Made by a program: the position numbers and the translations under genes. The notes under the pieces are model-generated. The model saw only the letters and a list, made by a program, of their open reading frames with translations, did no database searches and was not told the origin of the DNA. A stretch of DNA of 64,000 nucleotides from Prolixibacteraceae bacterium. GTDB taxonomy: Bacteria; Bacteroidota; Bacteroidia; Bacteroidales; Prolixibacteraceae. The stretch is from NCBI GenBank assembly GCA_034003625.1, contig JAVEYG010000015.1:22726-86725 (forward strand), read 5' to 3'. Of the stretch, positions 4,344 through 63,120 are shown piece by piece. The number at the start of each line of letters is the position of its first letter. Position 1 is the first letter of the stretch.

Positions 4344-4384
4344 ATACTGAAGCATTGGTAACGATACGCCACGCATCAGCACCT

Positions 4385-5125: not shown

Positions 5126-5158
5126 ATAAGCCCTGTAAGGGCGCAAACAAATAAAACC

Positions 5159-5915: not shown

Positions 5916-6078
5916 AGCAATAACACTGGGCATCGCCCTGTACATAAGGAGAGAACATTATTACTTACCCTGAAAGGGTAATGGCAACAACACCGGGCAT
6001 CGCCCTGTGTATAAGAACAAAAACACCATTAATAAGCCCTGTAAGGGCGCAAACAAATAAAACCATGTCGCAATCATT
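5916..6078. repeat. Two further REP units plus a 78-bp perfect duplicate of the RAYT 5' region
   Basis: 6001-6078 is identical to 5095-5172, including ATGTCGCAATCATT (the RAYT start). The second copy then stops after 9 codons. Confidence 0.9.
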
Positions 6079-6104
6079 TTTGCACAAAACATAAACAACA
6101 ACCA

Positions 6105-9790: not shown

Positions 9791-9943
9791 CCTTATGGGT
9801 GATGCGATTTTTAATCGCGATTGAAAATCAGTTACCCGGTTTGTAAATAAAATAACATGGAGCTGCTGCAAAAAAGTCTCTCTGTTTGGAAGGGTTGGGG
9901 GGCTTTTCATTATCTTGCTTCGGTTTTATCGACACCGATGCAC

Positions 9944-42400: not shown

Positions 42401-45400
42401 GGGTTACTATTTTTTGAAAAGGCTCTCCGTCAATTTCGATAAAACAGGTTCTCAGCGATTCATGGCGCCGGACGATAGCGTTCCAGGCCTTTTCAAACAC
42501 AGCGACATCCAGATTCCCTTTCAAAAGCAAGGCGCCGGGCAGGTTGTACATGGCGCTTTGCCCCTCCAGTTTCGACAACATCCACATCCTGCGCTGGGCA
42601 TGGGAAAGCGGATAATAATCATTTTCTTCCGCCTTTTCAATCGGGTTGAAAAGAGAAGGATTTTTGGTTTTCAACAGTTTAGCGAGTGAAGCAACGGTTG
42701 CATGCCTGAACACTTCCCAAATAGTGACTTCGATATTAAACTCACGGTGAATCCTGGAAACCAGCCGAATGGCAATGAGGCTGTGCCCACCCAGTTTGAA
42801 AAAATTGTCGTTGGTATCAAGCTGTTCAACAGCCAGTAATTCTTTCCATATTTCACACAACTTTATTTCGAGTGCGTCGTCAATCCTGGAAATACCGCCG
42901 GCTTCCGGTGTTTTTTTCTGAGGAACCGGCAATGCTTTTTTATCTACTTTCCCATTGGCCGAAAGGGGAAGTTTTTCGAGTTCGGTGAACCAGGCCGGGA
43001 TCATATAATCAGGCAGATGCAGCGACAAAAATTGTCTCAGTTCGTCCGGATCGGTTTTAGACGAAACGGTGTAACAGGCCGCAAGTTCCTGATGGCTTCC
43101 TTCGCCGGTCAGGATAGCTGCAGCAGAATTTATCGTCGGATAATTCCGTATGCAGCTTTCAATTTCATTCAATTCGATCCTGAACCCGCGCAGTTTAACC
43201 TGGTCGTCAGCCCTTCCGGTGAGCAGGATGGCGCCGTCGTCCAGATAGCGGCCGATGTCGCCGGTGCGGTAAATCCGTTTTCCGGGAAGAAAATCCGTTT
43301 CGACGAATTTTTCGCGGGTCATTTCCGGCTGGTTCAGATAGCCTCTTGCCAGTCCTTCGCCGGCAATGCACAATTCGCCGTTCACTCCGGCAGGCGCCAT
43401 TTTCAAATTTTTATCCAGAATGAAAACCTGCACGTTGCCCAGCGGTTTTCCGACGGGAACGGCTTCAAAGCCGGATTGGTTTTGCAACGCAAATTCAGAA
43501 GTGATATTCAGAGAAGCGGATACGTCGCAGCATTCGGTGGGACCATATACGTTGCTGATCACGGGCGGCTGCTTGCCGGCCTGTTCAAACAATTTTTGTA
43601 CCGGACGCCACATGAGTTGCTGCCCGCCGATGACAAACCGCTGCGGCAAATAGTTCGGAACACCGGTCTGCAGTTCATCGAGCAGGATTTCCAAATGAAT
43701 TGGCGTGCCGTCGGAAACATCAATCCGGTGTGTTTTATAATATTCCAGCAGTTTTTTTCCGTTCAACCGGATATCATCGGGAACAATATCGAGGCAGTGG
43801 CCGGTTAACAGCGCATAAAAAATCTGTTTAACCGAGGCATCGAAAACAAACGGCGAAACCAAAGCTATATTTAAAGGCGCCGGAGGATTCCGATAAATTG
43901 CTGCATCGAGTCCGGCTACCAGGTTGCAGAGGCTGTGGTGCTCAACCATGACGCCTTTGGGCATTCCGGTTGACCCGGAAGTATATAAAACATAAGCCAG
44001 AGAAGACGCAGAAATGCTGACTGCGGGTAATCGACCCTCACTTTCATTTAATTTACCGGTATCGAGAACAGTAATACTTTCGCCGGCAATTTGCCGTGCC
44101 AACTTCATCAGGCTGTGGTCGGTCAGCAGCATTTTGCACCGGCTGTCTTTCAGCATAAAACGGAGGCGTTCCACAGGCAATTCGGGGCTGAGTGGCAAAT
44201 AAGCCCCGCCGGCTTTCAGGATACCGAAAATACCGATCACCATTTGTTCCGAACGCGGCAAAAGTAGAGCGACAATATCATCCGGTTCAATTCGATGCTT
44301 CAGGATCTCATGGGCAACAGCATTTGTTTTCCGGTCAAACTGGCTGTAAGTGAGCCTGGTGTTATTGAAAACCAGTGCAGTTTGTGATGGTGTTTTTCTG
44401 ACCTGTTTTTCAAACACTTCAGTTACAATCCTGTTGTCGATGCTGAGTTCGGGGCCGCACGCCATATGCCTCAGTGCCAGCTCTTCCGTGTGCTCCAGGA
44501 TGTTGATGTCCCGGATCGGAAGCCGGGGATTTTTTAGAACGGTATTCAGCAAGATATTCATGTGCCCGGTGAGCTTTTCGATCCGTTGCTGGTTAAATAA
44601 GTTGGTGTTGAAGCCAATGCAAAAATTTATTTTTTCGTCGTTTTCCGTGAATGTGAAAGTCAGGTCAAATTTGCTGATCGTAAAATCCACCGGATAAAAT
44701 GAAGCTTTGATTTCGTTCAGTCCCAAAGCAGTAACATCTTTGGTTTGATATTGCAGAAGTACATCGAAAAGGGGGGCGCGCGATGTATCACGTTCCAGGT
44801 CCAAATCCTGAACCAGTCGGTCGAACGGATAATTGCTGTTGGAGAAAGCCCCGGACGCGTTTACCTTCACTTCCTGCAAAAATTGCAGGAAAGTCTGTTC
44901 TGTTTTTATTTGATTTCGCAAAGCGACGGTGTTGAGGTACAAACCCACCTGGTTTTCCAGTTCGCGGCGGTTTCTTCCGGCCACGGGGGAGCCGATGAAA
45001 ATGTCTTCATCGGAAGTGTATTTATGAAGCAATACATTCACCGCCGCCAGCAGAATCATAAACGGGCTGACTTGTTGCTCTTTGCCGAAATTTTTCAGCC
45101 GGTGCCCGAGGGATTGATCCAGTTCGCTAAAAAGATATTTGCCCTCGTAAGTTTTTACAGCCGGGCGCATCCGGTCGGTTGGCAATTGCAGCGCGGGCAG
45201 GGGAGTTTTCAGGGTTTTCAGCCAAAATTCTTTTTCTTTCCTGAGCTTGCCGCTATCGAGTAGTTTTTTTTCATAATGGCAATAATCCTTGTACTGAAAA
45301 TGAAGAGGTTTCAGAATATCTTTTTGGATTTCAACAGAAAAAGAGTTATAAACCTTTGACAGTTCCTCCATGAGAATTCCGATGGAAAGCCCGTCGCCGA

Positions 45401-48400
45401 CAATGTGGTGGATGACAAGCAAAAAAAGATGTTTTTGAGGATTGATCCTTGCCAGATGCGCACGAAATGGGGTTTCATGACGGAGATCAAAAGGAGTCAT
45501 CACGGCTTTGTCGAATACTTTTTTAGCTTTAAATTCCCCATCGGTTCCTTTACTGAAATCGTAAAAATTGAATGGTACCGAAGGGTTGTTCAGCACCTTT
45601 TGAAACGGTTCGCCTTCCCGTTCGATAAAAATGGTGCGCAAAATTTCGTGCCGTTTTACAACGGCATAAATTGCATTTTCAAGTTTTATACGATCCAAAT
45701 TGCCCTCCAGCAAAAACGAAACCGGCATGTTGTAAACCGCCGCGTTTTTTTTGTCCTGTGATAAAACCCACAGGCGTTTCTGGGCATGTGACAACTGGTA
45801 AAATTCCTGCTCCGGCGCTTTTTGAATATCGTCTTCATCGTTGTTTTTGCCGGCCGCCAGTGCCGTTGCCACTCCCCGTACCGTCGGGTGATCAAAAACA
45901 GATTTGAAGTTAATTTCCAGTCCAAGTTCCCTTTTTATCCGTGTGATCAGACGGGCCGTTTTGAGGCTTTCGCCGCCCAGTTCAAAAAAGTTATCGTTTA
46001 CCTTCACCGGCGAATGGTTCAGCACATCTTCAAAAAGCGGGATTAATTTCAATTCCAGTGCAGTTGGTTCCGCTGCATCATCGACAACAGTCGCCCTTTT
46101 AAATGAAACCTGTTTCCGAAGTTCATTTTTATTGACTTTTCCATTTGGAGTGAGCGGAACTTTTTCAATAAAAACAAAATACTGCGGTACCATGTACTCT
46201 GGCAAAAATTCCAGCAAAAACTCTCTAAGCGCTGTTGTCGCCACTTCGCCGGAAGGAACGACAAATGCTGCAAGTTCTTTGCTGCCGCTCGTGTCTACAT
46301 CGAGAACCACAGTTTCTTTCACCAACTTGTGTTTGTGCAGGCGGTTTTCAATCTCTCCCAACTCGATGCGGTTTCCTTTGATTTTTACCTGGTCGTCGAG
46401 CCTGCCCAGAAATTCGATGTGGCCGTCGGGCAAAAAACGCGCTTTGTCGCCTGTCCGGTACATGTGCCGGTTTTTTTCAAAAGGGTCGGGGATAAATTTT
46501 TGAGCGGTCAGCGTTTCGTTGTTTAAATAGCCGCGGGCGAGACCGGGGCCGGAAATGAACAGTTCGCCTGCAAAACCGGCAGGCAACGGTTCGAGCTGTT
46601 CATTCAAAATATAAATGGAAGAACCCGGAACAGCTTTGCCGATGGGCAAAGTACCGGCATTTTCTGATTCCCTGCCAGCCTGAAACCATGAAGCACAAAC
46701 CGATGCTTCCGTAGGGCCGTAACCGTTGATATAGTTTTTTCTTTTTTTATAGAAGTCCACATCCGATGGAATGGCCGCTTCTCCGGCGGTAATCAATGTG
46801 TGCAGGTGCGGCAGTTCCGGTTTGTCGAGTGCATTCAGATAGGCCGGCGGCAGTGTGGCTACGCTGACCTTTTTATCATTCATATATTGAATGAATGTAG
46901 GTGGGTCCTGGATGGTTTCCCGGTCGGCGATAACCAGTGTTGCGCCTGTCAGCAGCGCCTGAAATATTTCGAAAACCGAAGCGTCAAAACCGGGAGAGGC
47001 AAACTGGAGCACGCGGTCGTCTTCGGTCACATGGTAGTTTTCGATCATATTTACAAACATGTGCATAAAACTACCATGTTCAATCATGACGCCTTTGGGC
47101 GCGCCCGTTGAGCCCGAAGTGTAAATGATATACGCCAGGTCGTTTTGTTTTATTTCTGCAGGAATATCGATATCACCCGAATCTTCCGTTTCATCCAGCG
47201 TGAATATATTTACCGGGAGCCCGGTATGTGCCGGATTGTCTGTTGCCAGCAATTTAGCGCGGCTGTTTTCGAGGATGAAGCTGAGCCTTTCGCGCGGCAA
47301 CCGGCCGTCAACCGGGAGATAAACAGCACCGGTTTTCATGATGCCGAGCATGGCGGCAATGGCGCGAGGCGTACGCTCGGCCGCCAGGCAAACGATATCC
47401 CCTTTTTTTACCTGATGCCGTTTGGCCAGATTGCCGGCAATCCGGTCCGATTCCCTGTTAAGAGCGGAATAGTTGATTGACTTTTCATGGTAAACGACGG
47501 CAGCTTTCTCCGGGAATAATTTCGCGCATGATTCGAACCGGGAAACAATGGTATCCTTTGTTTTTTTTACTTCGCCGGTTTGATTGAATACCTTCACTAT
47601 TTTGTGTTCTTCAAAAGGCGTCAGAAATTTTACTTCTGAAATTTTCTTTTCCGGGAAGTATATCAACTCAAAAAGAACCGTTTCAAAGCATCTGGCGAAT
47701 TGCATCATTTCCTGTTCAGAAAAAACAAGCGGGTTGTAATTGAAAAACAGGTTGACATTTTCCTCCTCGTCGTATTCATCGATTTCCAGGCTGATGCTTT
47801 CGGTACGGATTTGAGTATCCAGAGTCACAGATTGGAGTTTGGCTTCACCGAAGCGTTGTGAAAAATCCACTTTCCGGTAAATGACAGTTACATCGAAAAG
47901 CTCGTTCCGGAATCCGGGGTTGCCACGGAAATGTTTAAACGTTTCACTCAGCGGGAGTCGTTGATGTCGGTAACTTTCTTTTACCTCCAGTTTAATGGCA
48001 TTCAGGATATTGGCGAACGTCCAGTCTTGTTGCAGGCGAAGGCGGACCGGAATCATGTTCATAAACAGGCCGGGGGTATTGCGAAATTTATGATTGCTCC
48101 GGTTCAGCACCGGCATGCCGATGATGATGTCGCTTTTGCCGTAAATTTTATAGAACGTGGTGAATAAAATGCCCAAAAGCGTTTGAAAGGAAGAGACCCC
48201 TATTTCACCGGCAATCTTCAAAATGGATGCGTAACACATCCGGTGCAGGTTCAGGGTGATGCGTTCGGTGTGGAGCGATGCAGTTTTTAAACTGTATTTT
48301 TTTGAAGTAAAATCCATGGGTTCGGGCAGCGGGCTGAGTTTTTTCTGCCAAAACAAAGTGGAATCTTTGTAATACTCAGACTCCCGGTATTTCAGGTCGT

Positions 48401-48950
48401 CTTCCAGAAAATCCAGGTACGAACAGCCTTTGATTTCCGGGTAACCGCCTGTGGCCAATAAACTGTTGTAAGTATCTGAAAGGGCCTGATTGACAATGGA
48501 ACGGCCGTAAGCATCGTTTGAAAAATGATGAAATCTCGGAAACAGGATAAATTGTTTTTCAGCCGTTTGAAAGACCATTTCACGATACAACCGTACTTTT
48601 TCGAAAGGAAATGGTTTGGAATTTTCCTGAAGTAAAAATTGCATGGCGCTTTCGAAAGGATTCTTCTCCTGTCTGAGGTCAACGTATTCAATAATATCGG
48701 TTTCTGTTTCTGAATCAAAAGTCTGGAAAAGTTCGCCGTCTTTCGAAACAAATCTTTGCCGGAACACATCAAATTTACCTGTAATAAATTGGTAGGCTCG
48801 TCCGAGCAGTTCTACGTCCAGCGCCCCGTTCAGGATCAGGACGCCTCCCATGTTGTATTTGCTGTCGTTTCGATGAAGAAGATAGTCGTAGTAGAAAGTC
48901 CGCTGAGGCAAAGTCAGCGGGTATAAATGGTCGTCGTTACTATTTTGCAT
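39387..48950 (-). CDS. Three-module NRPS: Cstarter-A-T, C-A-T, C-A-T
   Basis: 3187 aa. The N-terminal C domain has HHFSNDAYG (48525-48530), with no preceding A or T. Further HHxxxDG motifs are at 45405 (HHIVGDGLS) and 42219 (HHIIGDGWS). A3 motifs are LAYIIYTSGSTGAPKG, LAYVLYTSGSTGMPKG and LAYVIYTSGSTGTPKG. T sites are FFELGGES, FFKLGGHS and FFGIGGNS. It ends in an acidic tail, LQFEDEDE. Confidence 0.95.
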   Translation of the reverse strand: MQNSNDDHLYPLTLPQRTFYYDYLLHRNDSKYNMGGVLILNGALDVELLGRAYQFITGKFDVFRQRFVSKDGELFQTFDSETETDIIEYVDLRQEKNPFESAMQFLLQENSKPFPFEKVRLYREMVFQTAEKQFILFPRFHHFSNDAYGRSIVNQALSDTYNSLLATGGYPEIKGCSYLDFLEDDLKYRESEYYKDSTLFWQKKLSPLPEPMDFTSKKYSLKTASLHTERITLNLHRMCYASILKIAGEIGVSSFQTLLGILFTTFYKIYGKSDIIIGMPVLNRSNHKFRNTPGLFMNMIPVRLRLQQDWTFANILNAIKLEVKESYRHQRLPLSETFKHFRGNPGFRNELFDVTVIYRKVDFSQRFGEAKLQSVTLDTQIRTESISLEIDEYDEEENVNLFFNYNPLVFSEQEMMQFARCFETVLFELIYFPEKKISEVKFLTPFEEHKIVKVFNQTGEVKKTKDTIVSRFESCAKLFPEKAAVVYHEKSINYSALNRESDRIAGNLAKRHQVKKGDIVCLAAERTPRAIAAMLGIMKTGAVYLPVDGRLPRERLSFILENSRAKLLATDNPAHTGLPVNIFTLDETEDSGDIDIPAEIKQNDLAYIIYTSGSTGAPKGVMIEHGSFMHMFVNMIENYHVTEDDRVLQFASPGFDASVFEIFQALLTGATLVIADRETIQDPPTFIQYMNDKKVSVATLPPAYLNALDKPELPHLHTLITAGEAAIPSDVDFYKKRKNYINGYGPTEASVCASWFQAGRESENAGTLPIGKAVPGSSIYILNEQLEPLPAGFAGELFISGPGLARGYLNNETLTAQKFIPDPFEKNRHMYRTGDKARFLPDGHIEFLGRLDDQVKIKGNRIELGEIENRLHKHKLVKETVVLDVDTSGSKELAAFVVPSGEVATTALREFLLEFLPEYMVPQYFVFIEKVPLTPNGKVNKNELRKQVSFKRATVVDDAAEPTALELKLIPLFEDVLNHSPVKVNDNFFELGGESLKTARLITRIKRELGLEINFKSVFDHPTVRGVATALAAGKNNDEDDIQKAPEQEFYQLSHAQKRLWVLSQDKKNAAVYNMPVSFLLEGNLDRIKLENAIYAVVKRHEILRTIFIEREGEPFQKVLNNPSVPFNFYDFSKGTDGEFKAKKVFDKAVMTPFDLRHETPFRAHLARINPQKHLFLLVIHHIVGDGLSIGILMEELSKVYNSFSVEIQKDILKPLHFQYKDYCHYEKKLLDSGKLRKEKEFWLKTLKTPLPALQLPTDRMRPAVKTYEGKYLFSELDQSLGHRLKNFGKEQQVSPFMILLAAVNVLLHKYTSDEDIFIGSPVAGRNRRELENQVGLYLNTVALRNQIKTEQTFLQFLQEVKVNASGAFSNSNYPFDRLVQDLDLERDTSRAPLFDVLLQYQTKDVTALGLNEIKASFYPVDFTISKFDLTFTFTENDEKINFCIGFNTNLFNQQRIEKLTGHMNILLNTVLKNPRLPIRDINILEHTEELALRHMACGPELSIDNRIVTEVFEKQVRKTPSQTALVFNNTRLTYSQFDRKTNAVAHEILKHRIEPDDIVALLLPRSEQMVIGIFGILKAGGAYLPLSPELPVERLRFMLKDSRCKMLLTDHSLMKLARQIAGESITVLDTGKLNESEGRLPAVSISASSLAYVLYTSGSTGMPKGVMVEHHSLCNLVAGLDAAIYRNPPAPLNIALVSPFVFDASVKQIFYALLTGHCLDIVPDDIRLNGKKLLEYYKTHRIDVSDGTPIHLEILLDELQTGVPNYLPQRFVIGGQQLMWRPVQKLFEQAGKQPPVISNVYGPTECCDVSASLNITSEFALQNQSGFEAVPVGKPLGNVQVFILDKNLKMAPAGVNGELCIAGEGLARGYLNQPEMTREKFVETDFLPGKRIYRTGDIGRYLDDGAILLTGRADDQVKLRGFRIELNEIESCIRNYPTINSAAAILTGEGSHQELAACYTVSSKTDPDELRQFLSLHLPDYMIPAWFTELEKLPLSANGKVDKKALPVPQKKTPEAGGISRIDDALEIKLCEIWKELLAVEQLDTNDNFFKLGGHSLIAIRLVSRIHREFNIEVTIWEVFRHATVASLAKLLKTKNPSLFNPIEKAEENDYYPLSHAQRRMWMLSKLEGQSAMYNLPGALLLKGNLDVAVFEKAWNAIVRRHESLRTCFIEIDGEPFQKIVTRFDFKIETAEYAGGDWNKETLNELAVAWFDKEFDLSKLPLMAIRLVRLSADRHLFLFNMHHIIGDGWSLDNMLKELKILYDAYLNHSEVALGPLRIHYKDYAIWQNKMLEESSLVSVKDYWLNKLQKPRPLLNLPTDYKRPENLPLDGNLLHFRLGLEKTRALAELGRSRDASLFVTLLSAVYVLFYKYTGEEDILIGSPVAGRQHDDLENQIGFFINTLVLRNQVQPENSFPEFLQQVSETMNEALDNQLYPFDRLVDELDVERLQNRNPLFDVMVAWMVKNGMEMDFEFSGVSAKGIEFPITRSMFDLTFLFEESKGEIIFSIEYNTSLFRQNRIERMAQHFRQLIESILSGPEEKISALSILPEKEKEQLLVQFNKTALKLPRGKNVTGLFEEQAAVHPDATALIYEDRKVSYGNLNLQADNIAGLLIEEVNAGREDIIVVMTDDPVQSVAAVVGIMKSGAACLPLATDTPPERAAFIVRDSRAKAVLADGTIHLSETGTNILDIRTAGKSSSFTKPEINAGNLAYVIYTSGSTGTPKGVMVEHGALSNLIGSLNYNIYSRYPEPLNELMISSFAFDVSLKQIFATLCNGNILHILSNEKRLDPREISNYILNEKINIADITPSVFAVMLEEGFGETAKPWLKELFLGSEALPYKLVRNFYQNSANRGVRVTNFYGPTECCVESSFFRFNPDDMNENVDIAPIGKPAPNQQIYVLDRHLNVCPVGVPGEICIGGNGLARAYLNDPEKSAEKFIQFPLTGTRIYKTGDAGRIRPDGNIEFLGRMDEQVKIRGYRVELPEIEKHLSGMEGVGECAVALFGENGATELAAWFTAEKPVDTSALKNHLGRFLPDYMVPSCFIQLEKIPLSSNGKIDKKALPDPSTLLKKETFRAPGDEIEAILVRICNGILQKEQISMDDNFFGIGGNSLNAVRLISRLQKELNVNLPLKEIFYHPVLADLAEAVKKNMDTVDAEETTEETQAIAPASDEELKLLSELQFEDEDE

Positions 48951-51999: not shown

Positions 52000-53256
52000 A
52001 TGGATACAACTGAACTTTTTGTACCTGAAATAAATACGATTATCGAATTCGCTCAATCAAAAGGAAGCTTCATTTCAAATGATTCATATCTGAGATTGAA
52101 AGAAGTATATGAAATTTTCAGTTGTATAAAGCCAGCCGAAGATGATAAAAAAAGACATATCTGGATTGAAGTTTTAAGAGGGCCAATCTCTGTTTTTGGC
52201 GACTATGAAGAATACAGGGAAAGCGGAGAGGTTGAGACTTTCGAAGAGTTTGAACAGCTTTGGAAAGATTACTACCCGGAAGAAAGCAACTGGTATCGGC
52301 TTGATACTGCAGAATATCAGAACGAATTATTTTTCTATTTAGACGGGAAGCTCATTTGTTCGATTAGGCGAGATGACCCACCAGCAAAAGTTCCCGTTTT
52401 TGATTCCGATTATTTTGACCGGTTCACTGACTGGTTGCTCAGAAAAGTGGTAAGCGAAACAGGTGAACTAAAAAAAGATGAAGCTGCCTATAATCAATTT
52501 ATTGAGCAGAGTCTTCCCTGGTCGAAGCGATTCGGCAAAATAAAAAGGAGAGATTATTGGGATATCCAGGGTGATGAAGTTGTTCGCCTCGATAAGAATT
52601 TAGGTGATGAAAGCATTGAAAAGCTAAAAATAGTTGTTGAGAAAATTAAAAGTCAGGATATTCCTCTGTTAGAAAAGATGACCGCCGGTAAGTTTTTCAG
52701 GATTTGCGAAATTTGTTATGATGCCAACAGCTATTTCCGAAATTCACAGCTCCAATTGGTCCCAAAGGAAAAGTACCTGAAAATGGCTGACGGCAGGGAT
52801 GGCGGTTTACGCAAGCTTGAAGAAGATTCACCGTCGGCTTTTCAGGCATGGTACCATAGTTCGGTATGGATGGGCGGTCATCCCTGGGAAATATGCAGGG
52901 GCGGAAATTCAACTCATATTTCTCTTTATATTTCCGATATTCAGGGCAAATGGAAAGTTCGTCTGGCGGGGTCGAGTATTGTCAGGGTGGCGGAAACGGT
53001 AAAGATGGCTGTTGCACTTTACGACAATGAAATCCCTTTTGAACTGTCAGATGCAGAAAATATCCTACGCATGGTTACCGGGAATGATTATATCGGGATA
53101 GTTCCGGAGTATATTTTCCCCCGTTATTGCCATGGCCTATTCCCGAAAGAAGATCAGATCATTGATTTTATGAATCTGGAATATGACAAGGATAAAACCA
53201 TTAAAATAGTGGGAAAGACGCATTGGTACCCATTGGAATGGATTGCTCCAGCCTGA
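52000..53256 (+). CDS. Hypothetical protein (418 aa, no recognisable motif)
   Basis: Long uninterrupted ORF with normal-looking composition. It is the first of three same-strand genes. Confidence 0.6.
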   Translation: MDTTELFVPEINTIIEFAQSKGSFISNDSYLRLKEVYEIFSCIKPAEDDKKRHIWIEVLRGPISVFGDYEEYRESGEVETFEEFEQLWKDYYPEESNWYRLDTAEYQNELFFYLDGKLICSIRRDDPPAKVPVFDSDYFDRFTDWLLRKVVSETGELKKDEAAYNQFIEQSLPWSKRFGKIKRRDYWDIQGDEVVRLDKNLGDESIEKLKIVVEKIKSQDIPLLEKMTAGKFFRICEICYDANSYFRNSQLQLVPKEKYLKMADGRDGGLRKLEEDSPSAFQAWYHSSVWMGGHPWEICRGGNSTHISLYISDIQGKWKVRLAGSSIVRVAETVKMAVALYDNEIPFELSDAENILRMVTGNDYIGIVPEYIFPRYCHGLFPKEDQIIDFMNLEYDKDKTIKIVGKTHWYPLEWIAPA

Positions 53257-55016: not shown

Positions 55017-56246
55017 ATGGCTGGTATCAATAAATTATTTGTATCGCTGCTTCTCGAAGGAAACAGCTTTGAAGTTGGAGAACTGGTGCTTTCCTATCCA
55101 AAGATATATTTCAGGTACAATACTGATTTCCTCAAAACAGGACTTAATCTTTCGCCGATAAAGCTTCCATTTACTGATGATATAGTGAGCACCGACAAAC
55201 AACCATTTGACGGGTTGTTTGGGGTATTCAATGACTCATTACCTGACGGCTGGGGCAGGCTGTTGCTGGATCGCTCCTTATCTGCCAAAGGAATTGATAT
55301 TGCAAGGATAACACCGTTGGACCGGTTGGCATATGTCGGATCGCAAGGAATGGGGGCTCTTAGTTACAGACCTGAGATCAAGCCAGAAAAGACAACGGAA
55401 TTTGTTCCTGAACTGGACATCCTTGCTGCTGAAATGAACCACATACTACAAGGCACCAGCTCTGAGATTATCGAGGAATTGTTTATCCTGGGCGGTTCTT
55501 CCGGTGGCGCCAGACCCAAAATTTTTGCGGCTTACAATCCGGAGACCAACGATCTGTTACACGGTGTGGACAACATCCCTGAAGGTTATGAAGAATGGAT
55601 CATCAAATTTCCCTCATCTTCAGATAACAGGGAAATCGCCAATATCGAATTTGCTTACCACAAAATGGCACTTCTGGCTGGCATAGAAATGAGTGCATGT
55701 CGCCTTTTCAGGGGAAAATCAGGACAGGTATATTTTGGGACAAAGCGGTTTGACCGGGTCGCTGGTAAACGACTGCACACACATACCGCGTCAGGCCTTA
55801 TGCACGACAATTTCAGGATGAGTACAATGGATTACGGGCATCTGATGGATTGTGCTTTCCGCCTGGAAAAACACGTGAAAGCATACGAAAAAGTATTCAA
55901 GCTGGCAGCATTCAACGTGTATTCGCATAACCGGGACGACCATAGCAAGAACTTCTCATTCCTGATGGACGCCAAAGGCGAATGGCAGTTTGCCCCGGCA
56001 TACGACCTGACCTTTTCCTATTCCGGCTATGGGTTTCACAGTACCATGATTGCCGGGGAAAGTAAAAATCCGGGACGAAAGGAACTCATGAAACTAGCCA
56101 CACATTTCGGATTGAAAAATGCAAGCCTTATTATCGAAGAGGTTCAGGAGGCTATAAGCCAATGGGGAGCAATCGCTGGGGAATATGAAATAACAGGGGA
56201 AACAAGAAACGCTGTTCAGACAGCAATGGATAAGATCAGGGATTAA
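55017..56246 (+). CDS. hipA: HipA-family serine/threonine kinase toxin
   Basis: SLPDGWGRLLLDR (HipA N-terminal coupling motif), GGSSGGARPKI (P-loop-like) and the catalytic NRDDHSKNFSF. Confidence 0.85.
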   Translation: MAGINKLFVSLLLEGNSFEVGELVLSYPKIYFRYNTDFLKTGLNLSPIKLPFTDDIVSTDKQPFDGLFGVFNDSLPDGWGRLLLDRSLSAKGIDIARITPLDRLAYVGSQGMGALSYRPEIKPEKTTEFVPELDILAAEMNHILQGTSSEIIEELFILGGSSGGARPKIFAAYNPETNDLLHGVDNIPEGYEEWIIKFPSSSDNREIANIEFAYHKMALLAGIEMSACRLFRGKSGQVYFGTKRFDRVAGKRLHTHTASGLMHDNFRMSTMDYGHLMDCAFRLEKHVKAYEKVFKLAAFNVYSHNRDDHSKNFSFLMDAKGEWQFAPAYDLTFSYSGYGFHSTMIAGESKNPGRKELMKLATHFGLKNASLIIEEVQEAISQWGAIAGEYEITGETRNAVQTAMDKIRD

Positions 56247-56741: not shown

Positions 56742-57989
56742 TCATATCTTAAAGGCAGCTGACATCAGTATCTGCTCGCTACGCGTTATGCCGATGTGAT
56801 CGGCTAATCTTTGCCAGCCAGACACCACAGACTTTACCTCGTCCAGAATCACATCCGTTTCCTTTTCTCCCAGACGGAAATAAGGACCTACGCTTTTGGC
56901 AAGCTCAATATCAAGTATGTTGTTTTCCATATCGATATTCAATGCAAGTCCGTCTTTGTCAATTGACGGATTTATATCATAAGCCGGGGACAAACGCCAG
57001 CCTTCATTTGTCAGAATAAATCCGTGATTTCTTAAATGATCATCTGTGTTAGAGATGAGTATATTAAAAACAATCCTTCTCCAGAGTTGCCGCAGGTCTT
57101 CATCAACATGTGTTCCGGAGAATTGGATGAATTCTACAATGTCCAGATAGGAAGGAATATCGTCCCGGATAAGTTCTTCATTGTAGCCGGTCATTGTCAT
57201 TGCCGAAGCAAAGTGAATACGCTGTTGTTTATCCCGGTCAAATCGTTTGGTGAAAAACGTATCGTATTTCCCGGCAACATGTTCCAATCTGGATTCAGCC
57301 ATTTCGATGCCAGCATCAACAGCAAGCCGGTAAGCCAAGTATTCCCATGCTGCTTTGTTGATTGTGTCATTCTTCGAAGGAAATTTTGCAATCCACAGGT
57401 GACCATCCATATCCAAAATATTGGCTTTCGGCCTGGCACCTCCAAGTGAAGATCCGGGAGCCATCAGCATGGCCAGCCATTTTTTAATCTCTGATGTATT
57501 GATGTCGGATTCTATCAACTCTGCACTGTGCTGTAATTCCCTGATGCTCGTCCATGGTGGCGTTGGTGAAACCGGATCATTGTCAAGAAATTCCCCTTCG
57601 GGGTCTCTTTTAAACCGTAAAGCTCCCATCCTGCACAAATCATGTACTCCCAATAAATAATCGATATCATACAATGTAGGTGCAAGGCGACCTTCCTCTG
57701 TTGCATAGATTGCACTGCGCCTTTTCATTAGTGTTCGTCCCCATGTATCGGGCATGGAATCCAAGAATACGCCAAAATTATCCTTCCCATTTGGATATTG
57801 GCGCCCTTTATACCATGCAATGTCTGGATCGAGAAGTATTTGCTCCTGTGAGTTAATCCAGTCAGCATTGTACTCGAAACTATAGGCTTTTCGTCCTTTG
57901 GCCTGCTGTGCTGATAAAATTCCGACACATCTTGGGGAGGCTATACCTTTCCAATCAGCATATATCCAAATATCTGTTCTATCTGCCAT
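56742..57989 (-). CDS. hipA: HipA-family kinase toxin (second, diverged copy)
   Basis: SMPDTWGRTLMKRR, GSSLGGARPKA and NTDDHLRNHGF. Confidence 0.85.
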   Translation of the reverse strand: MADRTDIWIYADWKGIASPRCVGILSAQQAKGRKAYSFEYNADWINSQEQILLDPDIAWYKGRQYPNGKDNFGVFLDSMPDTWGRTLMKRRSAIYATEEGRLAPTLYDIDYLLGVHDLCRMGALRFKRDPEGEFLDNDPVSPTPPWTSIRELQHSAELIESDINTSEIKKWLAMLMAPGSSLGGARPKANILDMDGHLWIAKFPSKNDTINKAAWEYLAYRLAVDAGIEMAESRLEHVAGKYDTFFTKRFDRDKQQRIHFASAMTMTGYNEELIRDDIPSYLDIVEFIQFSGTHVDEDLRQLWRRIVFNILISNTDDHLRNHGFILTNEGWRLSPAYDINPSIDKDGLALNIDMENNILDIELAKSVGPYFRLGEKETDVILDEVKSVVSGWQRLADHIGITRSEQILMSAAFKI

Positions 57990-57992: not shown

Positions 57993-58286
57993 TTATTTCC
58001 CCATTAACTTCAAGTCCTGCAATTTTCTTCCAAACTCATCATCGGCTGCCAGTTTCAGAAAGTCGTCCTGCAAGCCCAATACCCGGATAACATTGAAGTA
58101 TGCCCCCAATGCAACACTGGGGGTTCCCTTTTCAATGTGATAGAGTGTTGAGCGGTTTATACCAGCCCGTTCTGCAACCTGTATTGCTGTCAGATTCCGG
58201 CGCTTCCTCGCAAGTTTAATATTTTCACCCATCTGTTCCAGTATCTTCTGAAATTTCGGAAGTAAAATTTGTTTCTTTGTTTTCAT
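57993..58286 (-). CDS. hipB: XRE-family HTH antitoxin (HipB-like, second copy)
   Basis: RKRRNLTAIQVAERAGINRSTLYHIEKGTPSVALGAYFNVIRVLG. It ends 3 nt before its hipA-like gene. Confidence 0.75.
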   Translation of the reverse strand: MKTKKQILLPKFQKILEQMGENIKLARKRRNLTAIQVAERAGINRSTLYHIEKGTPSVALGAYFNVIRVLGLQDDFLKLAADDEFGRKLQDLKLMGK

Positions 58287-58546: not shown

Positions 58547-60133
58547 TTATTCCTTCGAAACAGATTCAATTTCAATCTTCAGAAACCGGAATGCTTCTTT
58601 TTTTAATGATCCCGGGAAACGCCTGATGATGGTCGAATTGACTATGATTGCACCACCTGCATTCAGGGAACAGGTTACTGGGTTGCAATTCTCAACAATG
58701 GTTATTCGTTCATTTTCACTGTGCTGCTTTTTGTGCGATCCCGGAATAATCTGCATTGAAAGCTGCTTTATTTTTGGTTGAGAAAGAAGAACAATCAATT
58801 CGAGCTTAGAATTCCCATATTGGTTAAACTCGCAGAAATGCTCAGGTATTTTCTCGTAGTAATTCACTGCATTTATCGTAAATGAGCCAACCAATTGGTT
58901 GACAACTTTCTCTACAGAAGGAGTAAAAAGTATTGATCTTATGCTTTTATCAATACCAACATCAATCACCTTTGGCTCCACCGAAGCATTGACAGGAAAA
59001 TCAGTTTTTGATAATGCCAGGGCCAGTTGGTTTATGCTTCTCCTGGAATAGAGTTGATTCACCGTGCAAAATCCGTTTTGAGCATATTTTCTGCCAAGCG
59101 ACACAATTCCTTTCTCGGTAATCGATGTATTGTACAAATCGAGGGCATTGGTCAACCTTTCAGTGATATTCGCCCGCAGGCGGTCAGGTGAAAGAACAAC
59201 AACTCCATCGCCCAACCCCAGAATTTCCTTTTCCAGTTCAAAATTGTGTTGAACTTCCAGCGAAACAGTGATTCCATATTCGTTGTCATCAATCAGCTTC
59301 TGCGAAGGATGCAACGGTTTGGTCAGCACATAGGGAGCATGTTTTCGGGTAACAAACAGCACGATATTTTCAGCTTTAGCACCATGATTCACCGTTACGC
59401 CAATTACATTTTTATAATACACTTCAGCATCAAAAACAATTTCATCAGTAAACACTTTCTCTGTATTTCGGACTTCAATAATCCGGTCGATGGCTAGGTT
59501 AAACAGGGGATGAGCATTGTTCTTTGAGCCAATCAGGAACCAACGGTTGCGGAACTCCTTTAAAAGATAAGGGTAAAACGCAAAAGTACCTGCCTGCCGG
59601 GCAGTAAATGACTGGTAGGTGATTTCGAGTATGTTCTTTCGGATAATAGCCTGGTAAAGCTTTTCAAGGAATTCAATTCCCTTTAAATCTTCGTTTTTTT
59701 CGAAGTCAATAACCGGCTTGCGGTTTACTTTCTGCGAGTAAATATGGTCTTCAAGCTTTTGTACCATCGATTCCAGTTCCCTGAAATGAGAGAATCCCTT
59801 GAACTGCTTCAGGAAATCAACTGTCTCTGTTAATTTATCCAGATCGCCTTCCGAAAGCGGGATATTCATAATACTATAGTTTGCGTCTTCGTAGGTATAG
59901 TATTTTTTCTCTGAAATCACTATCGGGGCATTGTAACCCAGCTTATCGCTCCGCATTAACTGAATATCCATCTGAACAGTTCGCCTGCTCACTCCTTTAT
60001 CGATTCCTTCATATTCATACAAAGCGTCCGAACAGGCATCTATTAAATCGTCCAAGGTCCATCTCCGGTAACGGTTCTGAAGGCATAAATCAATGGTTTT
60101 GTATCGTATAAGCGCATTTCGATTGACTGGCAT
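58547..60133 (-). CDS. HTH-WYL domain transcriptional regulator with an extra ~190-aa C-terminal domain
   Basis: The likely start is ATG 60131-60133 (MPVNRNALIRYKTIDLCLQNRYRRWTLDDL..). A winged HTH is followed by a WYL-like core (FAFYPYLLKEFRNRWFLIG). The C-terminal extension contains IIPGSHKK. The ORF-track start 60214 would cover the promoter palindromes. Confidence 0.75.
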   Translation of the reverse strand: MPVNRNALIRYKTIDLCLQNRYRRWTLDDLIDACSDALYEYEGIDKGVSRRTVQMDIQLMRSDKLGYNAPIVISEKKYYTYEDANYSIMNIPLSEGDLDKLTETVDFLKQFKGFSHFRELESMVQKLEDHIYSQKVNRKPVIDFEKNEDLKGIEFLEKLYQAIIRKNILEITYQSFTARQAGTFAFYPYLLKEFRNRWFLIGSKNNAHPLFNLAIDRIIEVRNTEKVFTDEIVFDAEVYYKNVIGVTVNHGAKAENIVLFVTRKHAPYVLTKPLHPSQKLIDDNEYGITVSLEVQHNFELEKEILGLGDGVVVLSPDRLRANITERLTNALDLYNTSITEKGIVSLGRKYAQNGFCTVNQLYSRRSINQLALALSKTDFPVNASVEPKVIDVGIDKSIRSILFTPSVEKVVNQLVGSFTINAVNYYEKIPEHFCEFNQYGNSKLELIVLLSQPKIKQLSMQIIPGSHKKQHSENERITIVENCNPVTCSLNAGGAIIVNSTIIRRFPGSLKKEAFRFLKIEIESVSKE

Positions 60134-60141
60134 AATATTTT

Positions 60142-60192
60142 TGCATAAAAATATGCACTTTTTTTCTACTGCGCAAAAAGACTGCGCAGTAG
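60142..60192. promoter_or_regulatory. Divergent promoter/operator region: a TAnnTTTG-like -7 box and two palindromes
   Basis: TATTTTTG at 60136-60143 (plus strand). Palindrome 1 is TGCATA-aaaa-TATGCA at 60142-60157. Palindrome 2 is CTACTGCGCA-n7-TGCGCAGTAG at 60166-60192. Confidence 0.45.
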
Positions 60193-60397
60193 AGTTCCAC
60201 CTTTGTTCCATCAATTGATGACAACAAGTTCTTTGAACAATTAAGATACAGTGCTGCCGGCACTAAAAATCTTCCTGAAAAGGGAGCGCGGTGAAAAGCC
60301 AAAGGTAAAAGACCGGACGTGGGTTTCCATACAGCCCCGTAGTGCGGTATTCAATCGAATAACCGTATGCTGCTTTGCCCCAGGTTGTTTTACACCA

Positions 60398-60462
60398 CTT
60401 GTCTGTTGGAGGTTCGAATCCTCCTCCCCTGTAACGGGATAACTCAACGGTAGAGTAACAAG
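60398..60462 (+). ncRNA. Circularly permuted tRNA-like module (YrlA/Y-RNA-like tRNA mimic)
   Basis: CTTGT (60398-60402) pairs with ACAAG (60458-60462). Next comes a 5-nt variable-like CTGTT. The T-arm is GGAGG-TTCGAAT-CCTCC (60408-60424). The capped acceptor-like stem is TCCC-ctgtaac-GGGA (60425-60439). TA sits at the U8/A9 position. The D-arm is ACTC-aacGGta-GAGT (60442-60456), followed by A at position 26. The full transcript ends are unknown. Confidence 0.6.
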
Positions 60463-60644
60463 CACCACCCAGGAACTGCGTCTGGTAAACGCAATGGAGT
60501 TAGATTCCAAAAAAGAAGAAGGTCGCTTCTGAAAAAGACTGCAGAGAGTTGTGCCGGGAAGCCCGCTGTTTAGCCCGTTCCAAATGGCTAAATGGCAATT
60601 TTGAAATGCCTGAAAACAGGACCCAACCTATAACATCATTTGCT

Positions 60645-60709
60645 TTTGGGTGAAGCATCTGCATCGGGGAGTTTTAACAGAAACGCCTGATGCTGCCCCT
60701 ACACCCAAA
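60645..60709 (+). ncRNA. Second structured element in the rtcB-operon leader
   Basis: The outer 8-bp stem is TTTGGGTG (60645-60652) with CACCCAAA (60702-60709). The inner stem is GCATCGGG (60661-60668) with CCTGATGC (60686-60693). A duplicated GCATC (60655 and 60661) competes for the single GATGC. Confidence 0.35.
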
Positions 60710-60819
60710 CTGATTGATTGTGAACGCGAATAGCCCTGTCTTTCCGCTATGGAGAAATGGTTTTCCCGGCAAGCTTTCTTTAAAAGAAATAAGATTTAAT
60801 AATAATAAAAACCAAAACA

Positions 60820-61920
60820 ATGAAAAGACAAAGAATCAACAGAGGAACAGTCGGATTGGTATTCCGAAAAGGCGACTACAAACGCATCATCACCGAAGGA
60901 TTACATTGGTTAGGATTCAATGAAGAGGTGAAAGTCTATAACTTAGCCAAACCTTTTACTCCTGAAGTTGAATTAAACCTGTTACTGAAAGATGCTGAAT
61001 TGGCTGAACGTTTAACTGTAGTTGAAGTAAAAGACCATGAAATAGCTCTTCAGTTTATCGAAGGAAACTTCAAAAATGTGCTTACCCCAGGTCGTTATGC
61101 CTTCTGGAAAGGAATAACCAATTACACATTTACAACGGTTGATTTAAGCAAAATTGAAATTTCGGAAAATATACCCATTCAACTGTTGCACAAAGCAGAA
61201 GTTTTGCAATATGTACGGGTTTATGTGGTTGAATCATACGAAAAAGGAGTTTTGATGATTAACGGGAAAGCTGAGAAGGTTTTGGAAAAAGGAGTTTACT
61301 ACTTCTGGAAAAACCCAATCCCAATTTCAGTAATCAAAACCGATTTGCGACAATTGCAGTTGGAAATATCAGGACAGGAAATCCTGACCAAAGACAAGGC
61401 AGCATTACGGGTAAATTTCTTTGTCCGTTACAAAACGGTTGATATTGACAAAGCTTTGTTTGAAAACAAAGAATTCGATAAGCAACTTTACGTGATGGTT
61501 CAGTTGGCCATCCGTGAATTTATCGGGACGAACACATTGGACGAACTGCTTGAGCTAAAAATATCGGTTTCAGAATCTATCCTGATGGCGATCACTCCTA
61601 AAACAGCCGAAATTGGCGTGGAAATTTTGGACTGCGGTATTCGTGATATTATTTTGCCCGGCGAGGTGAAAGACATCATGAACCAGGTGCTTGTTGCCGA
61701 GAAGAAGGCACAGGCCAACATCATTACCAGAAGGGAGGAAACAGCCTCAACCCGGAGTTTGCTGAATACCGCCAAACTCATGGAAGAAAACGCCATGCTT
61801 TTTAAGCTCAAAGAAATGGAGTATCTGGAACGGATTACCGAAAAGGTTAACAATATTTCGCTTTCCGGCGGAGGGCTTGTGCTGGACCAGTTGAAAGGAC
61901 TGTTCGTTTCTCAAAAGTAA
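60820..61920 (+). CDS. Soluble SPFH/band-7 (slipin-like) protein
   Basis: 366 aa with no N-terminal TM. The SPFC-like core includes LTKDKAALRVNFFVRYK and IREFIGTNTLDELL. It is followed by GIRDIILPGEVKDIMNQVLVAEKKAQANIITRREE, the band-7 C-terminal helix. Confidence 0.7.
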   Translation: MKRQRINRGTVGLVFRKGDYKRIITEGLHWLGFNEEVKVYNLAKPFTPEVELNLLLKDAELAERLTVVEVKDHEIALQFIEGNFKNVLTPGRYAFWKGITNYTFTTVDLSKIEISENIPIQLLHKAEVLQYVRVYVVESYEKGVLMINGKAEKVLEKGVYYFWKNPIPISVIKTDLRQLQLEISGQEILTKDKAALRVNFFVRYKTVDIDKALFENKEFDKQLYVMVQLAIREFIGTNTLDELLELKISVSESILMAITPKTAEIGVEILDCGIRDIILPGEVKDIMNQVLVAEKKAQANIITRREETASTRSLLNTAKLMEENAMLFKLKEMEYLERITEKVNNISLSGGGLVLDQLKGLFVSQK

Positions 61921-61938: not shown

Positions 61939-63120
61939 TTGACGATTATGAAACAAGTTATATCAGAGGGATGCAAAGTCCCGATAAAAATGTGGTTAAG
62001 CGATGTTGAAGAGAATGCGTTGGCTCAGGCCCGAAACCTGGCCAACCTTCCTTTCGTTTTTAAACATGTAGCTTTAATGCCCGACTGCCACTCCGGGTAC
62101 GGAATGCCTATTGGCGGGGTTATTGCTACGAGAGGAGTGATAATTCCCAATGCGGTTGGCGTTGATATTGGTTGCGGCATGTGTGCGGTGAAAACATCGC
62201 TCAACGAAATACAAACCGACGGGATCAAGAAAATCATGTCGGGTATCCGGGAGTTGATACCACTTGGATTTGACCATCACAAAGAAGCTCAGGATGAACA
62301 TTTGATGCCTTTGCTGGATAAAGTCCCTGAAAATGGAATTGTTCGTCGCCAATATACCGCAGCTAAAAAGCAGATTGGCACGCTGGGCGGTGGTAATCAT
62401 TTTATTGAAATACAGAAAGGGTCCGATAAGCATATCTGGATAATGATCCATTCAGGAAGCCGGAATATCGGGCTGAAAGTTGCCGAACACTATAACAAAC
62501 AGGCGATTCTGCTTAATGAGCGCTGGCATTCGTCGGTTGATAAAAAACAGGATTTGGCATTCCTGCCTATCGAAACTCAGGAAGCGAAAGACTATTTTGC
62601 CGAAATGCAATATTGTGTCGATTTTGCTTTTGCCAACCGGTTACTGATGATGGAGCGAATTAAATCAGTGTTTTTCGAGGTAATCGGCGAAAACTTCTCT
62701 GCCGTTGAGTTTATCAATATTGCCCATAACTATGCCAGATGGGAATCACATTTCGGGACAAATGTCATTGTTCACCGGAAAGGGGCAACCAGCGCCCGCG
62801 AAGGTGAGATTGGCATTATTCCAGGCTCCCAGGGAACGAAAAGCTACATCGTTCGGGGAAAAGGAAATGTTGAAAGTTTTGAGAGCTGCTCACACGGTGC
62901 TGGCCGACTTTTGGGACGGAAACAGGCGCAACGAGAATTGGTACTGGAAGAAGAAATCAAAAAGCTCAACAATCAGGGCATTGTTCACTCCATCCGAAAT
63001 ACCAAAGACCTAGACGAGGCTCCCGGTGCATATAAAAACATTGATGTGGTTATGGAAAATCAATCTGATCTGGTTGACATTTTAGTTGAACTGGCCCCAT
63101 TGGCTGTGATAAAAGGATAA
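61939..63120 (+). CDS. rtcB: RNA 3'-phosphate/2',3'-cyclic phosphate ligase RtcB
   Basis: MPDCHSGYGMPIGGV, GCGM, GGGNHFIE, HSGSRNIG, AHNYA, HRKGAT, PGSQGTKSY and SCSHGAGR. The full set of RtcB metal and GMP-His motifs is present. Confidence 0.9.
   Translation: MTIMKQVISEGCKVPIKMWLSDVEENALAQARNLANLPFVFKHVALMPDCHSGYGMPIGGVIATRGVIIPNAVGVDIGCGMCAVKTSLNEIQTDGIKKIMSGIRELIPLGFDHHKEAQDEHLMPLLDKVPENGIVRRQYTAAKKQIGTLGGGNHFIEIQKGSDKHIWIMIHSGSRNIGLKVAEHYNKQAILLNERWHSSVDKKQDLAFLPIETQEAKDYFAEMQYCVDFAFANRLLMMERIKSVFFEVIGENFSAVEFINIAHNYARWESHFGTNVIVHRKGATSAREGEIGIIPGSQGTKSYIVRGKGNVESFESCSHGAGRLLGRKQAQRELVLEEEIKKLNNQGIVHSIRNTKDLDEAPGAYKNIDVVMENQSDLVDILVELAPLAVIKG

Follow-up and report, generated by a model that had tools for sequence, protein, structure and literature searches.

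Two kinds of described bacterial RNA come closest to the element considered here, a 65-nt circularly permuted tRNA-like module at positions 60398–60462 (+ strand) of a 64,000-nt stretch of Prolixibacteraceae bacterium contig JAVEYG010000015.1 (hereafter the window), upstream of genes for an SPFH/Band-7 protein and the RNA ligase RtcB. The first is YrlA, a bacterial Y RNA with a tRNA-like domain. YrlA was defined by Chen et al. 2014 (PMC4201824) in a search of genomes with a TROVE gene only; nearly all of the copies share a strand with rsr and are no more than 4 kb away from it, and GNCGAAN0-1G is given as the YrlA Rsr motif. The Salmonella rsr-yrlBA-rtcBA operon is damage-inducible and is regulated by RtcR (Hughes et al. 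2020, PMC7790460). YrlA is bound by Rsr and carries pseudouridine 55 and dihydrouridine. The second is a tRNA-like RNA associated with Band-7 genes. In the abstract of their 2016 paper, Burroughs and Aravind reportedly described SPFH/Band-7 modules with a cognate novel tRNA-like molecule. As that work is related by Wang et al. 2018 (bioRxiv 10.1101/312249), it predicted a tRNA associated with band 7 (named b7a-tRNA) beside Band-7 and RtcB genes; the same passage of the preprint says that b7a-tRNA "strongly resembles" authentic tRNA and that YrlA occasionally adjoins Band-7. In addition, an SPFH gene lies inside the rtc locus of Pseudomonas aeruginosa PA14 (PMC13086221).

In the window, the module amounts to a tRNA's L-shaped body with its parts permuted: a loop caps its acceptor end, and it has no anticodon loop. 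Reading along the + strand, to which all coordinates refer unless stated otherwise, an anticodon-stem-like strand, CTTGT (60398–60402), is followed by a 5-nt variable loop, ctgtt (60403–60407), and a T-arm, GGAGG-ttcgaat-CCTCC (60408–60424). Next come an acceptor hairpin of 4 bp capped by 7 nt, TCCC-ctgtaac-GGGA (60425–60439), the dinucleotide TA at the U8/A9 position (60440–60441), a D-arm, ACTC-aacggta-GAGT (60442–60456), A26 (60457), and ACAAG (60458–60462), which pairs back with CTTGT to form a closing helix. The order of elements is T, acceptor, D, rather than the acceptor 5', D, anticodon, T, acceptor 3' order of a canonical tRNA gene. A preliminary description, made from the sequence alone, had read all of these tRNA elbow elements in this order, and each one lies at the coordinates just given. 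The closing helix has only 5 bp, and the flanks of the module are not complementary to each other.

How well do standard tools recognize this arrangement? ARAGORN finds no tRNA gene in the window, and no Rfam family, the tRNA model included, matches the window at gathering thresholds. Both misses are expected for a tRNA shape that is permuted and loop-capped. Indeed, ARAGORN calls a tRNA once the module is re-permuted in silico, with the acceptor loop cut open and a 7-nt loop added to connect the strands of the closing helix, and it does so for 41/41 modules from related loci whose closing helix is good and whose acceptor has at least 6 bp. The energy of the four-helix fold equals the minimum free energy, at −16.8 kcal/mol, with a z-score of −0.77 relative to shuffled sequences, so thermodynamics alone neither selects nor excludes the proposed fold. 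Lacking both a free 3' end and an anticodon loop, the module is neither chargeable nor a substrate for cleavage by anticodon nucleases. The arrangement has a parallel in the circularly permuted tRNA genes of Cyanidioschyzon merolae and other algae, in which the T-arm half likewise lies upstream of the D-arm half and the acceptor strands are joined. The RNAs from those genes pass through a circular intermediate to become ordinary tRNAs, which have an anticodon loop and end in a free CCA, whereas the 4-bp capped acceptor and the lack of an anticodon loop mean that the window module cannot mature into a functional tRNA. Some second modules in related loci do carry a full anticodon arm.

The closest match among known families is to YrlA. 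When relaxed thresholds are applied to positions 60100–60900 (801 nt), the Rfam YrlA model (RF02553) aligns to 60400–60461 with 35.8 bits and an E-value of 5e-6, below the gathering threshold of 69. The alignment spans only model positions 23–86 of 114, which make up the tRNA-like domain, and leaves the terminal stem with the Ro site (positions 1–22 and 87–114) unmatched. The same model matches the module in 5/5 relatives tested, at 33–38 bits, all below the gathering value; positions 23–85/86 align in four of them and positions 1–114 in one (L047, in the numbering of related loci used below). The module shares with YrlA the succession of T-arm, loop-capped acceptor and D-arm, a closing helix in place of the anticodon stem, the conserved U8, A14, G18G19, T-loop and 15:48 Levitt pair, and a location on the coding strand of an RtcB RNA-repair operon. 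Thus, the preliminary comparison with the topology of the YrlA tRNA-like domain is borne out by an exact alignment over the module.

The module also differs from YrlA. Features associated with Ro are absent from the places searched: neither GNCGAAN0-1G nor GGUCCGA occurs in the leader (60134–60819), and a TROVE domain was found neither among the scanned window ORFs, 14 in all and each at least 300 aa long (two giant ORFs were left unscanned), nor within 10 kb in four related contigs (L081–L084). The preliminary description had likewise reported no TROVE/Rsr gene in the window and no Ro-binding element near the module, and within this scope it was correct. The window module also lacks the long terminal stem of YrlA, has a 5-nt variable loop where YrlA has a V stem-loop, and scores only half of the Rfam threshold. 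It is set in a leader of ~600 nt with further conserved domains, and its neighbors are genes for SPFH and a WYL regulator rather than Rsr and RtcR.

Further evidence for the module comes from related loci. Close homologs of the SPFH protein number in the thousands in Bacteroidota, and scanning an SPFH alignment against one genome per species yielded 80 loci. A strict pattern recovers 95 modules in 67 of these loci plus the window, often two in tandem, with 91/95 at 350–725 nt upstream of the SPFH start and the remaining 4/95 at 783–992 nt. In the window, the gap between the module and the SPFH start codon (60820) is 357 nt, close to the ~360 nt given in the preliminary description, and the host intergenic region is 686 nt long; Pfam confirms the Band_7 and RtcB domains of the gene pair downstream. 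A covariance model built from 48 first modules (R1) has the module itself as its sole match in the window, at 65.4 bits. Across the 80 loci, R1 gives 227 matches, all of them on the SPFH strand, and 75/80 loci have a match of at least 42 bits, mostly 350–720 nt upstream of SPFH. Of the five loci without such a match, three are on contigs that end too early upstream, and two (L010 and L011) have a different leader. Weak matches of 18–45 bits also occur, as expected, at junctions of genuine tandem tRNA genes. Fold, strand, position and linkage to the SPFH gene are conserved together across several Bacteroidota families, with the module at a fixed place. In L047, L049 and L053, RtcB is located elsewhere, across a tRNA array, and the module remains beside SPFH.

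All four helices of the module covary. In the 48-module alignment, 97% of cells pair and 16/20 pairs have changes on both sides; there are 216 double-change cells, as compared with 60 in shuffled alignments. The covariation score is 0.64, versus 0.23 for shuffled alignments (0/500 reach 0.64) and 0.09–0.18 when partners are slid. Because the first pattern itself required pairing, modules were recounted using sequence-only anchors, which gave 103 modules from 70 sources. In this set, the three variable (outer) T-stem pairs are 100% paired versus 43–84% in shuffles; acceptor pairs 1–5 are 92–98% paired versus 45–75%, with all Watson-Crick types represented; and the closing helix is 58–86% paired versus 42–73%, second modules included. 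Tertiary features are retained too. For example, the Levitt pair 15:48 is G:C in 77 of 104 modules, A:U in 23 and something else in 4, with A15:U48 in the window and G15:C48 in its closest relative, L001. The T-loop is TTCGANT in 99/104 modules and TTCAANN in 4, and A26 is present in 95/104. The pattern is therefore beyond chance, given the YrlA match and the compensatory recurrence in 75/80 related loci, and these substitutions indicate that a capped, anticodon-less tRNA body is under purifying selection for the L-shape. The structural and contextual interpretation in the preliminary description is supported by this: the proposed comparisons with the Rfam Y-RNA model and with relatives both came out positive, strongly so for covariation (four helices and the Levitt pair), and the possibility it had raised against itself, of a tRNA remnant specific to this strain, is contradicted by the conservation across Bacteroidota families.

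The module is one domain of a conserved, structured leader of ~600 nt that runs into SPFH-rtcB. The window and L001 leaders are 87% identical, and in an alignment of ten species conserved blocks are spread over the leader's entire length, from promoter to SPFH start codon. At its 5' end lies an operator-like repeat, CTACTGCGCAAAAAGACTGCGCAGTAG (60166–60192), composed of two ACTGCGCA units 13 nt apart and conserved in the alignment of the window with L001. The corresponding motif, TGCGYA-N6-8-TGCGYA (ACTGCGCAAAAAGACTGCGCAGTAG), occurs once per source in most of the 25 sources compared, and in the majority of these it is 625–940 nt upstream of SPFH. The operator is followed, with roughly constant spacing, by a promoter-like ACCTTTG (60199–60205), of which CTTTG is conserved with similar spacing in most of the 25 sources; it resembles the Bacteroidota −7 promoter box, TAnnTTTG. 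Transcription would then start near 60213. Judging from this arrangement, the operator repeat is probably bound by the divergently encoded WYL regulator, over a Bacteroidota-type promoter, and the leader is likely to be co-transcribed with SPFH-rtcB under WYL control. A search of the + strand from the promoter region to SPFH found no terminator-like site.

Three hairpins precede the module and, together with a linker, make up a 5' domain at 60265–60397. An alignment of the 150 nt before the module in 22 loci, folded with RNAalifold, supports these hairpins with compensatory changes in 17/22 predicted pairs. P1, CTTCC-tgaaaa-GGGAG (60271–60286), has such changes. P2 (60317–60340) has 8 bp, one bulged base and a 7-nt loop, UCNNNAU; its middle pair is AU in 8 sequences, GC in 7 and CG in 7, and a U-A pair of most loci is replaced by C-G in the window. 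P3 (60342–60368) has a variable sequence with a conserved base, GU.../...AU, and 7–9 pairs, most of them changed on both sides. A U-rich linker, GCTGCTT...GTTGTTTT (60369–60397), conserved in alignments A4 and A5 and apparently single-stranded, connects P3 to the module. Three candidate structures in this region were rejected. First, a single-sequence fold suggested a long, Y-RNA-like stem around the module, pairing ACCGGACG (60312–60319) with CGUCUGGU (60480–60487); it was discarded because the 5' strand overlaps the covarying P2 and the 3' partner exists only in the closest relatives. Second, pairing of the linker sequence TGCTGCTTTGCC with the 3' half of the D-arm has a mean duplex energy of −7.8 kcal/mol versus −6.1 kcal/mol for shuffled sequences, and was rejected because loci with GAAC-type D-stems show no compensation. 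Third, a hammerhead-like CUGAUGAG in the 5' domain has other bases at core positions in the window and L001.

Downstream of the module, relatives have either a second module, often with a full anticodon arm, or a hairpin of the form ATGGA-CUNNNAA-UCCAU. Re-permuted second modules with an anticodon arm are called as tRNA-Lys(UUU) in 12 cases, tRNA-Met(CAU) in 3, tRNA-Asn(GUU) in 3, and others. The hairpin keeps its stem and loop frame while the "anticodon" varies by lineage (GAA, GUU, AAA, CAA, CAU); it occurs in L006 (5638), L007 (5709), L008 (5627), L009 (5516), L014 (5643), L047 (5610) and others. In the window, a hairpin scan places an anticodon-arm-like hairpin with 5 bp and a 7-nt loop, TGCGT-CUGGUAA-ACGCA (60477–60493), where other loci have the second module; it is identical in L001 and near-identical in L081. 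A weak hairpin, TGGA-gttagat-TCCA (60495–60509), is a degenerate copy of the relatives' ATGGA-CUNNNAA-UCCAU in the A4 alignment. Beyond it are a small hairpin, AGAAG-gtcg-CTTCT, followed by an A-run (60518–60531), which corresponds to a GAAG...CTTC-UAAAAAA block in A4 and is not terminator-like, and a block 50 nt before the SPFH start, CTTTCCGCTATGGAGAAATGGTTTTCCCGG (60740–60769), whose 30 nt are identical in L001 and whose TTCCG is invariant in ten species. No Rfam family matches the leader, hairpins P1–P3, the linker or the 60740–60769 block. The Pedo-repair RNA motif lies upstream of repair genes in Pedobacter; it has no match in 60100–60900 at E-values up to 10, nor in two Pedobacter loci, L027 (gathering threshold) and L029 (E-values up to 0.01).

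Genuine-looking tRNA genes are found just upstream, in the same orientation, in many of the 60 loci scanned with ARAGORN. In 18 of these, tRNA-Tyr(GUA) is alone (among them L002, L006, L010, L011, L012, L019, L021, L023, L028, L032, L034, L040, L044, L051, L056 and L059); the lone tRNA-Tyr of L009 has AUA. This gene has a long variable arm and is located after the operator/promoter and before P1, mostly about 600–900 nt upstream of SPFH, and hence would be the first element of the operon transcript. Flavobacteriaceae loci L033, L037, L038, L039, L047, L049 and L053 have arrays of 8–16 tRNA genes on the SPFH strand directly upstream of the leader (roughly 1700–5200), and the Rfam tRNA model detects a run of tRNA genes on a Chitinophaga contig (L065, 143–1403). 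The array tRNAs include Lys(UUU), Tyr, Asp, Asn, His, Gln, Glu, Arg, Leu and Ile(UAU), and could be inducible spare tRNAs. In L010 (5840–5977) and L011 (5833–5971), the same operator (TGCGCA-N7-TGCGCA) and promoter drive only a tRNA-Tyr(GUA)-like gene, with no permuted module; this gene ends about 25 nt before the SPFH start.

How does the module relate to b7a-tRNA? Both are tRNA-like RNAs beside a Band-7/SPFH gene and RtcB, and b7a-tRNA has, in the terms in which it has been relayed, been proposed as the cognate RNA of an SPFH scaffold. By the same account b7a-tRNA looks like a tRNA, whereas the window module is permuted, capped and devoid of an anticodon loop, and is a tRNA to ARAGORN only after re-permutation. 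Probably, then, the tRNA-Tyr-like gene of L010 and L011 is what has been called b7a-tRNA, and the window module is what the preprint's mention of YrlA next to Band-7 refers to; in the SPFH clade of the window, the permuted module is the rule and not the exception. The newness of the tRNA mimic, assumed in the preliminary description, does not hold, since a Band-7-associated tRNA-like RNA had been predicted in 2016 according to Wang et al. 2018 (bioRxiv 10.1101/312249). Given that prediction, as relayed there, the module is a well-supported new example rather than a new kind. The tandem capped bodies, the anticodon-arm mimics, the three-hairpin 5' domain and the WYL operator may go beyond the 2016 description, to the extent that the preprint conveys it.

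What might the module do? The preliminary description had suggested a decoy, a sensor ligand or a scaffold. The explanation we favor, which we would give roughly an even chance of being right, is that it is a Ro-independent counterpart of YrlA, the cognate tRNA-mimic RNA of an SPFH-RtcB repair complex. The leader would be transcribed from the promoter under the operator shared with the divergent WYL regulator gene, and on into SPFH and rtcB, such that the RNA is made only when the operon is switched on by departure of the WYL regulator from the operator. The tRNA body might then dock on elbow-recognizing proteins, namely the SPFH oligomer, RtcB or both, and act as a scaffold or cofactor, as an RNA partner in the way that YrlA is for Rsr. 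In its favor are the fold, the linkage to SPFH, the conserved leader and the lack of Ro features, along with the earlier proposal of a cognate tRNA-like RNA for SPFH/Band-7 and the match of the SPFH domain to cage-forming stomatins. There are several points against this explanation. First, b7a-tRNA was never validated, as far as the account in Wang et al. 2018 (bioRxiv 10.1101/312249) goes. Second, a cis-acting regulatory leader would explain conservation up to the SPFH start, and the missing terminator, no less well than a trans-acting cofactor would. Third, the low-confidence model of SPFH (pLDDT 57) shows no recognizable RNA-binding domain. Fourth, L010 and L011, with a tRNA-Tyr-like gene only, mean that the module is not indispensable to the system. 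Fifth, the TROVE scan covers only the window and the relatives' surroundings, and Rsr could be encoded elsewhere in the genome.

A less likely alternative is that the leader is a cis-acting sensor, in which the tRNA-like body and the anticodon-arm hairpins turn the mRNA of the operon into bait for tRNA-directed nucleases or tRNA-binding proteins. SPFH-rtcB translation or stability would then change when the leader is cleaved, or when damaged tRNAs titrate a repressor protein bound to it. The second variant resembles the E. coli thrS mRNA leader, in which a tRNA-like operator mimics the anticodon arm of one tRNA and binds the gene's own synthetase, ThrRS. In both cases tRNA mimicry inside an mRNA leader offers a possible handle for a tRNA-binding protein, although thrS mimics the anticodon arm and the window module the elbow. 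The constrained distance between module and SPFH, the blocks that stay conserved as far as the start codon, and the missing terminator are all consistent with a sensor, as are the second modules with a complete anticodon arm (those of the Lys(UUU), Met(CAU) and Asn(GUU) types above) and the conserved ATGGA-CUNNNAA-UCCAU hairpin with its freely varying "anticodon." In addition, classic targets of anticodon nucleases, the tRNAs for Tyr, Asp, Asn, His, Gln, Lys and Glu, often have codirectional genes just upstream. However, the window module itself has no anticodon loop, the hairpins downstream of it are partly degenerate (60495–60509), and the sole switch candidate, the linker versus the D-arm, failed, so that no alternative-structure switch was found.

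A more elaborate reading, in which the whole ~600-nt leader is an undescribed modular RNA that senses tRNA damage, is rather unlikely. Its parts would be the three 5' hairpins, one to three capped tRNA bodies and lineage-specific anticodon-arm baits, behind a WYL-controlled promoter and sometimes accompanied by spare tRNA genes. The bait arms would be where an anticodon nuclease cuts the mRNA of the operon; the fragments could be the ligand of the WYL regulator, could unmask translation of SPFH-rtcB, or both; and the tRNA body might then load onto a stomatin-like SPFH cage to give a vault-like repair particle.

It is decidedly unlikely that the module acts instead as a decoy, that is, a trans-acting competitive inhibitor that keeps tRNA-targeting toxins or tRNA-modifying enzymes occupied during the repair of real tRNAs by RtcB. 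Preservation of the tRNA elbow and its tertiary pairs, together with the lack of a cleavable anticodon loop or a chargeable end, would suit a decoy, and the neighborhood is rich in conflict genes, with HipA toxins and type III CRISPR; the same idea was raised for YrlA by Hughes et al. 2020 (PMC7790460). On the other hand, many anticodon nucleases recognize the anticodon loop itself, which the window module does not have, and a single copy embedded in a leader may be too scarce relative to the cellular tRNA pool. Very unlikely, too, is an ordinary Ro-dependent YrlA bound by an Rsr/TROVE protein encoded elsewhere in the genome. The tRNA-like domain is of the YrlA type, and the confined scope of the TROVE scan leaves room for such a protein, but the partial alignment to positions 23–86 at half of the gathering score, and the lack of GNCGAAN0-1G, of GGUCCGA and of a long 5'/3' stem, argue otherwise; moreover, YrlA is nearly always within 4 kb of rsr (PMC4201824), and no TROVE gene was found in the scanned window ORFs or in the relatives' 10 kb. 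Lastly, a functionless remnant of a decayed or scrambled tRNA gene, or of the junction of two former tandem tRNA genes, is already refuted by the covariation and conservation data. The permuted order would arise where one tRNA's T-arm is succeeded by another's D-arm, and R1 does match such junctions at 18–45 bits. However, the strands on either side of the acceptor loop, behind the T-arm and ahead of the D-arm, pair at 92–98% with all Watson-Crick types, as those of two different tRNAs would not; the closing helix and the Levitt pair covary; and the module occupies a fixed place across several Bacteroidota families.

Several consequences follow from the SPFH-linked module. Bacterial tRNA-mimic RNAs in RtcB operons had previously been studied only with Ro/Rsr, and here strong structural selection has preserved an identical type of capped tRNA body in hundreds of Bacteroidota operons with SPFH instead of Ro. 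Thus, the tRNA-like domain is separable from Ro binding, and SPFH, RtcB or the WYL regulator are pointed to as candidate partners. The family alignment and model can annotate an element that is now missed by Rfam and by tRNA finders, and they link it to a conserved operator, to tRNA genes that may be inducible, and to anticodon-arm mimics.

The genes around the leader form a cassette, WYL-leader-Band_7-RtcB, that recurs in unrelated genomic surroundings. The regulator gene (58547–60133, − strand) encodes 528 aa from an ATG at 60133, beginning MPVNRNALIRYKT, with HTH-WYL-WCX architecture (Pfam WYL, 1.1e-9; WCX, 1.7e-10), and about 40 related loci likewise have a divergent gene for a WYL homolog upstream. 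PADLOC matched only the WYL domain of the regulator (2.4e-25), and the locus is not one of its listed defense systems. The Salmonella operon (Hughes et al. 2020, PMC7790460) is similar in being an RtcB operon with its own tRNA-mimic RNA and a ligand-sensing regulator. There, a sigma-54 activator with a CARF domain senses tRNA fragments, whereas the window has HTH-WYL-WCX and an operator over the promoter; the accessory protein is Rsr there and SPFH in the window, where no RtcA was identified next to RtcB.

The SPFH/Band-7 gene (60820–61920) encodes a slipin-type protein of 366 aa (Pfam Band_7, 2.3e-33), residues 133–344 of which have a PDB profile match to stomatin (1.4e-24). Only this stomatin-like part of the AlphaFold model is interpretable; with the low confidence noted above, Foldseek matches the model to cage-forming SPFH proteins and gives long, weak alignments to major vault protein (E-values of about 3e-8). 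By eye, residues 1–135 (60820–61230) consist of beta-rich repeats where the stomatin membrane hairpin would be expected, and the hydrophobic N-terminal hairpin is apparently absent. The RtcB gene (61948–63120) encodes 390 aa from an ATG at 61948 (the ORF list starts it at a TTG, 61939) and matches Pfam RtcB at 3.4e-114 as well as NCBIfam RtcB; orthologs are also 390 aa long. Among L002–L080, the RtcB that follows SPFH comes in two forms, one of 390 aa that is 64–88% identical to that of the window, and one of 468–476 aa that is only about 36% identical. Some loci, for example L019 (7247–7771), have an extra ORF of about 174 aa between SPFH and RtcB. In a Prolixibacteraceae genome (L083, 11131–11755, and L084, 6967–7549), the RtcB after SPFH is called as two short fragments, of 128 and 69 aa and of 114 and 92 aa, respectively, which suggests a disrupted gene or a sequencing error.

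Further from the leader, the window includes two giant ORFs on the − strand, at 21599–39487 (5962 aa) and 39387–48950 (3187 aa), as well as two ORFs on the + strand without a Pfam match, at 9857–12841 (994 aa) and 52000–53256 (418 aa). Type III-B CRISPR-Cas genes lie within 123–7049, with Cmr3 at 123–1238, a RAMP protein at 2507–3427 and Cas6 at 6105–7049. Two HipA-family kinase genes are located directly upstream of the WYL regulator gene, at 55017–56246 (+ strand) and 56742–57989 (− strand), and an HTH (HipB-like) gene (57993–58286, − strand) adjoins one of them. The RNA-repair cassette sits in a region rich in conflict genes.

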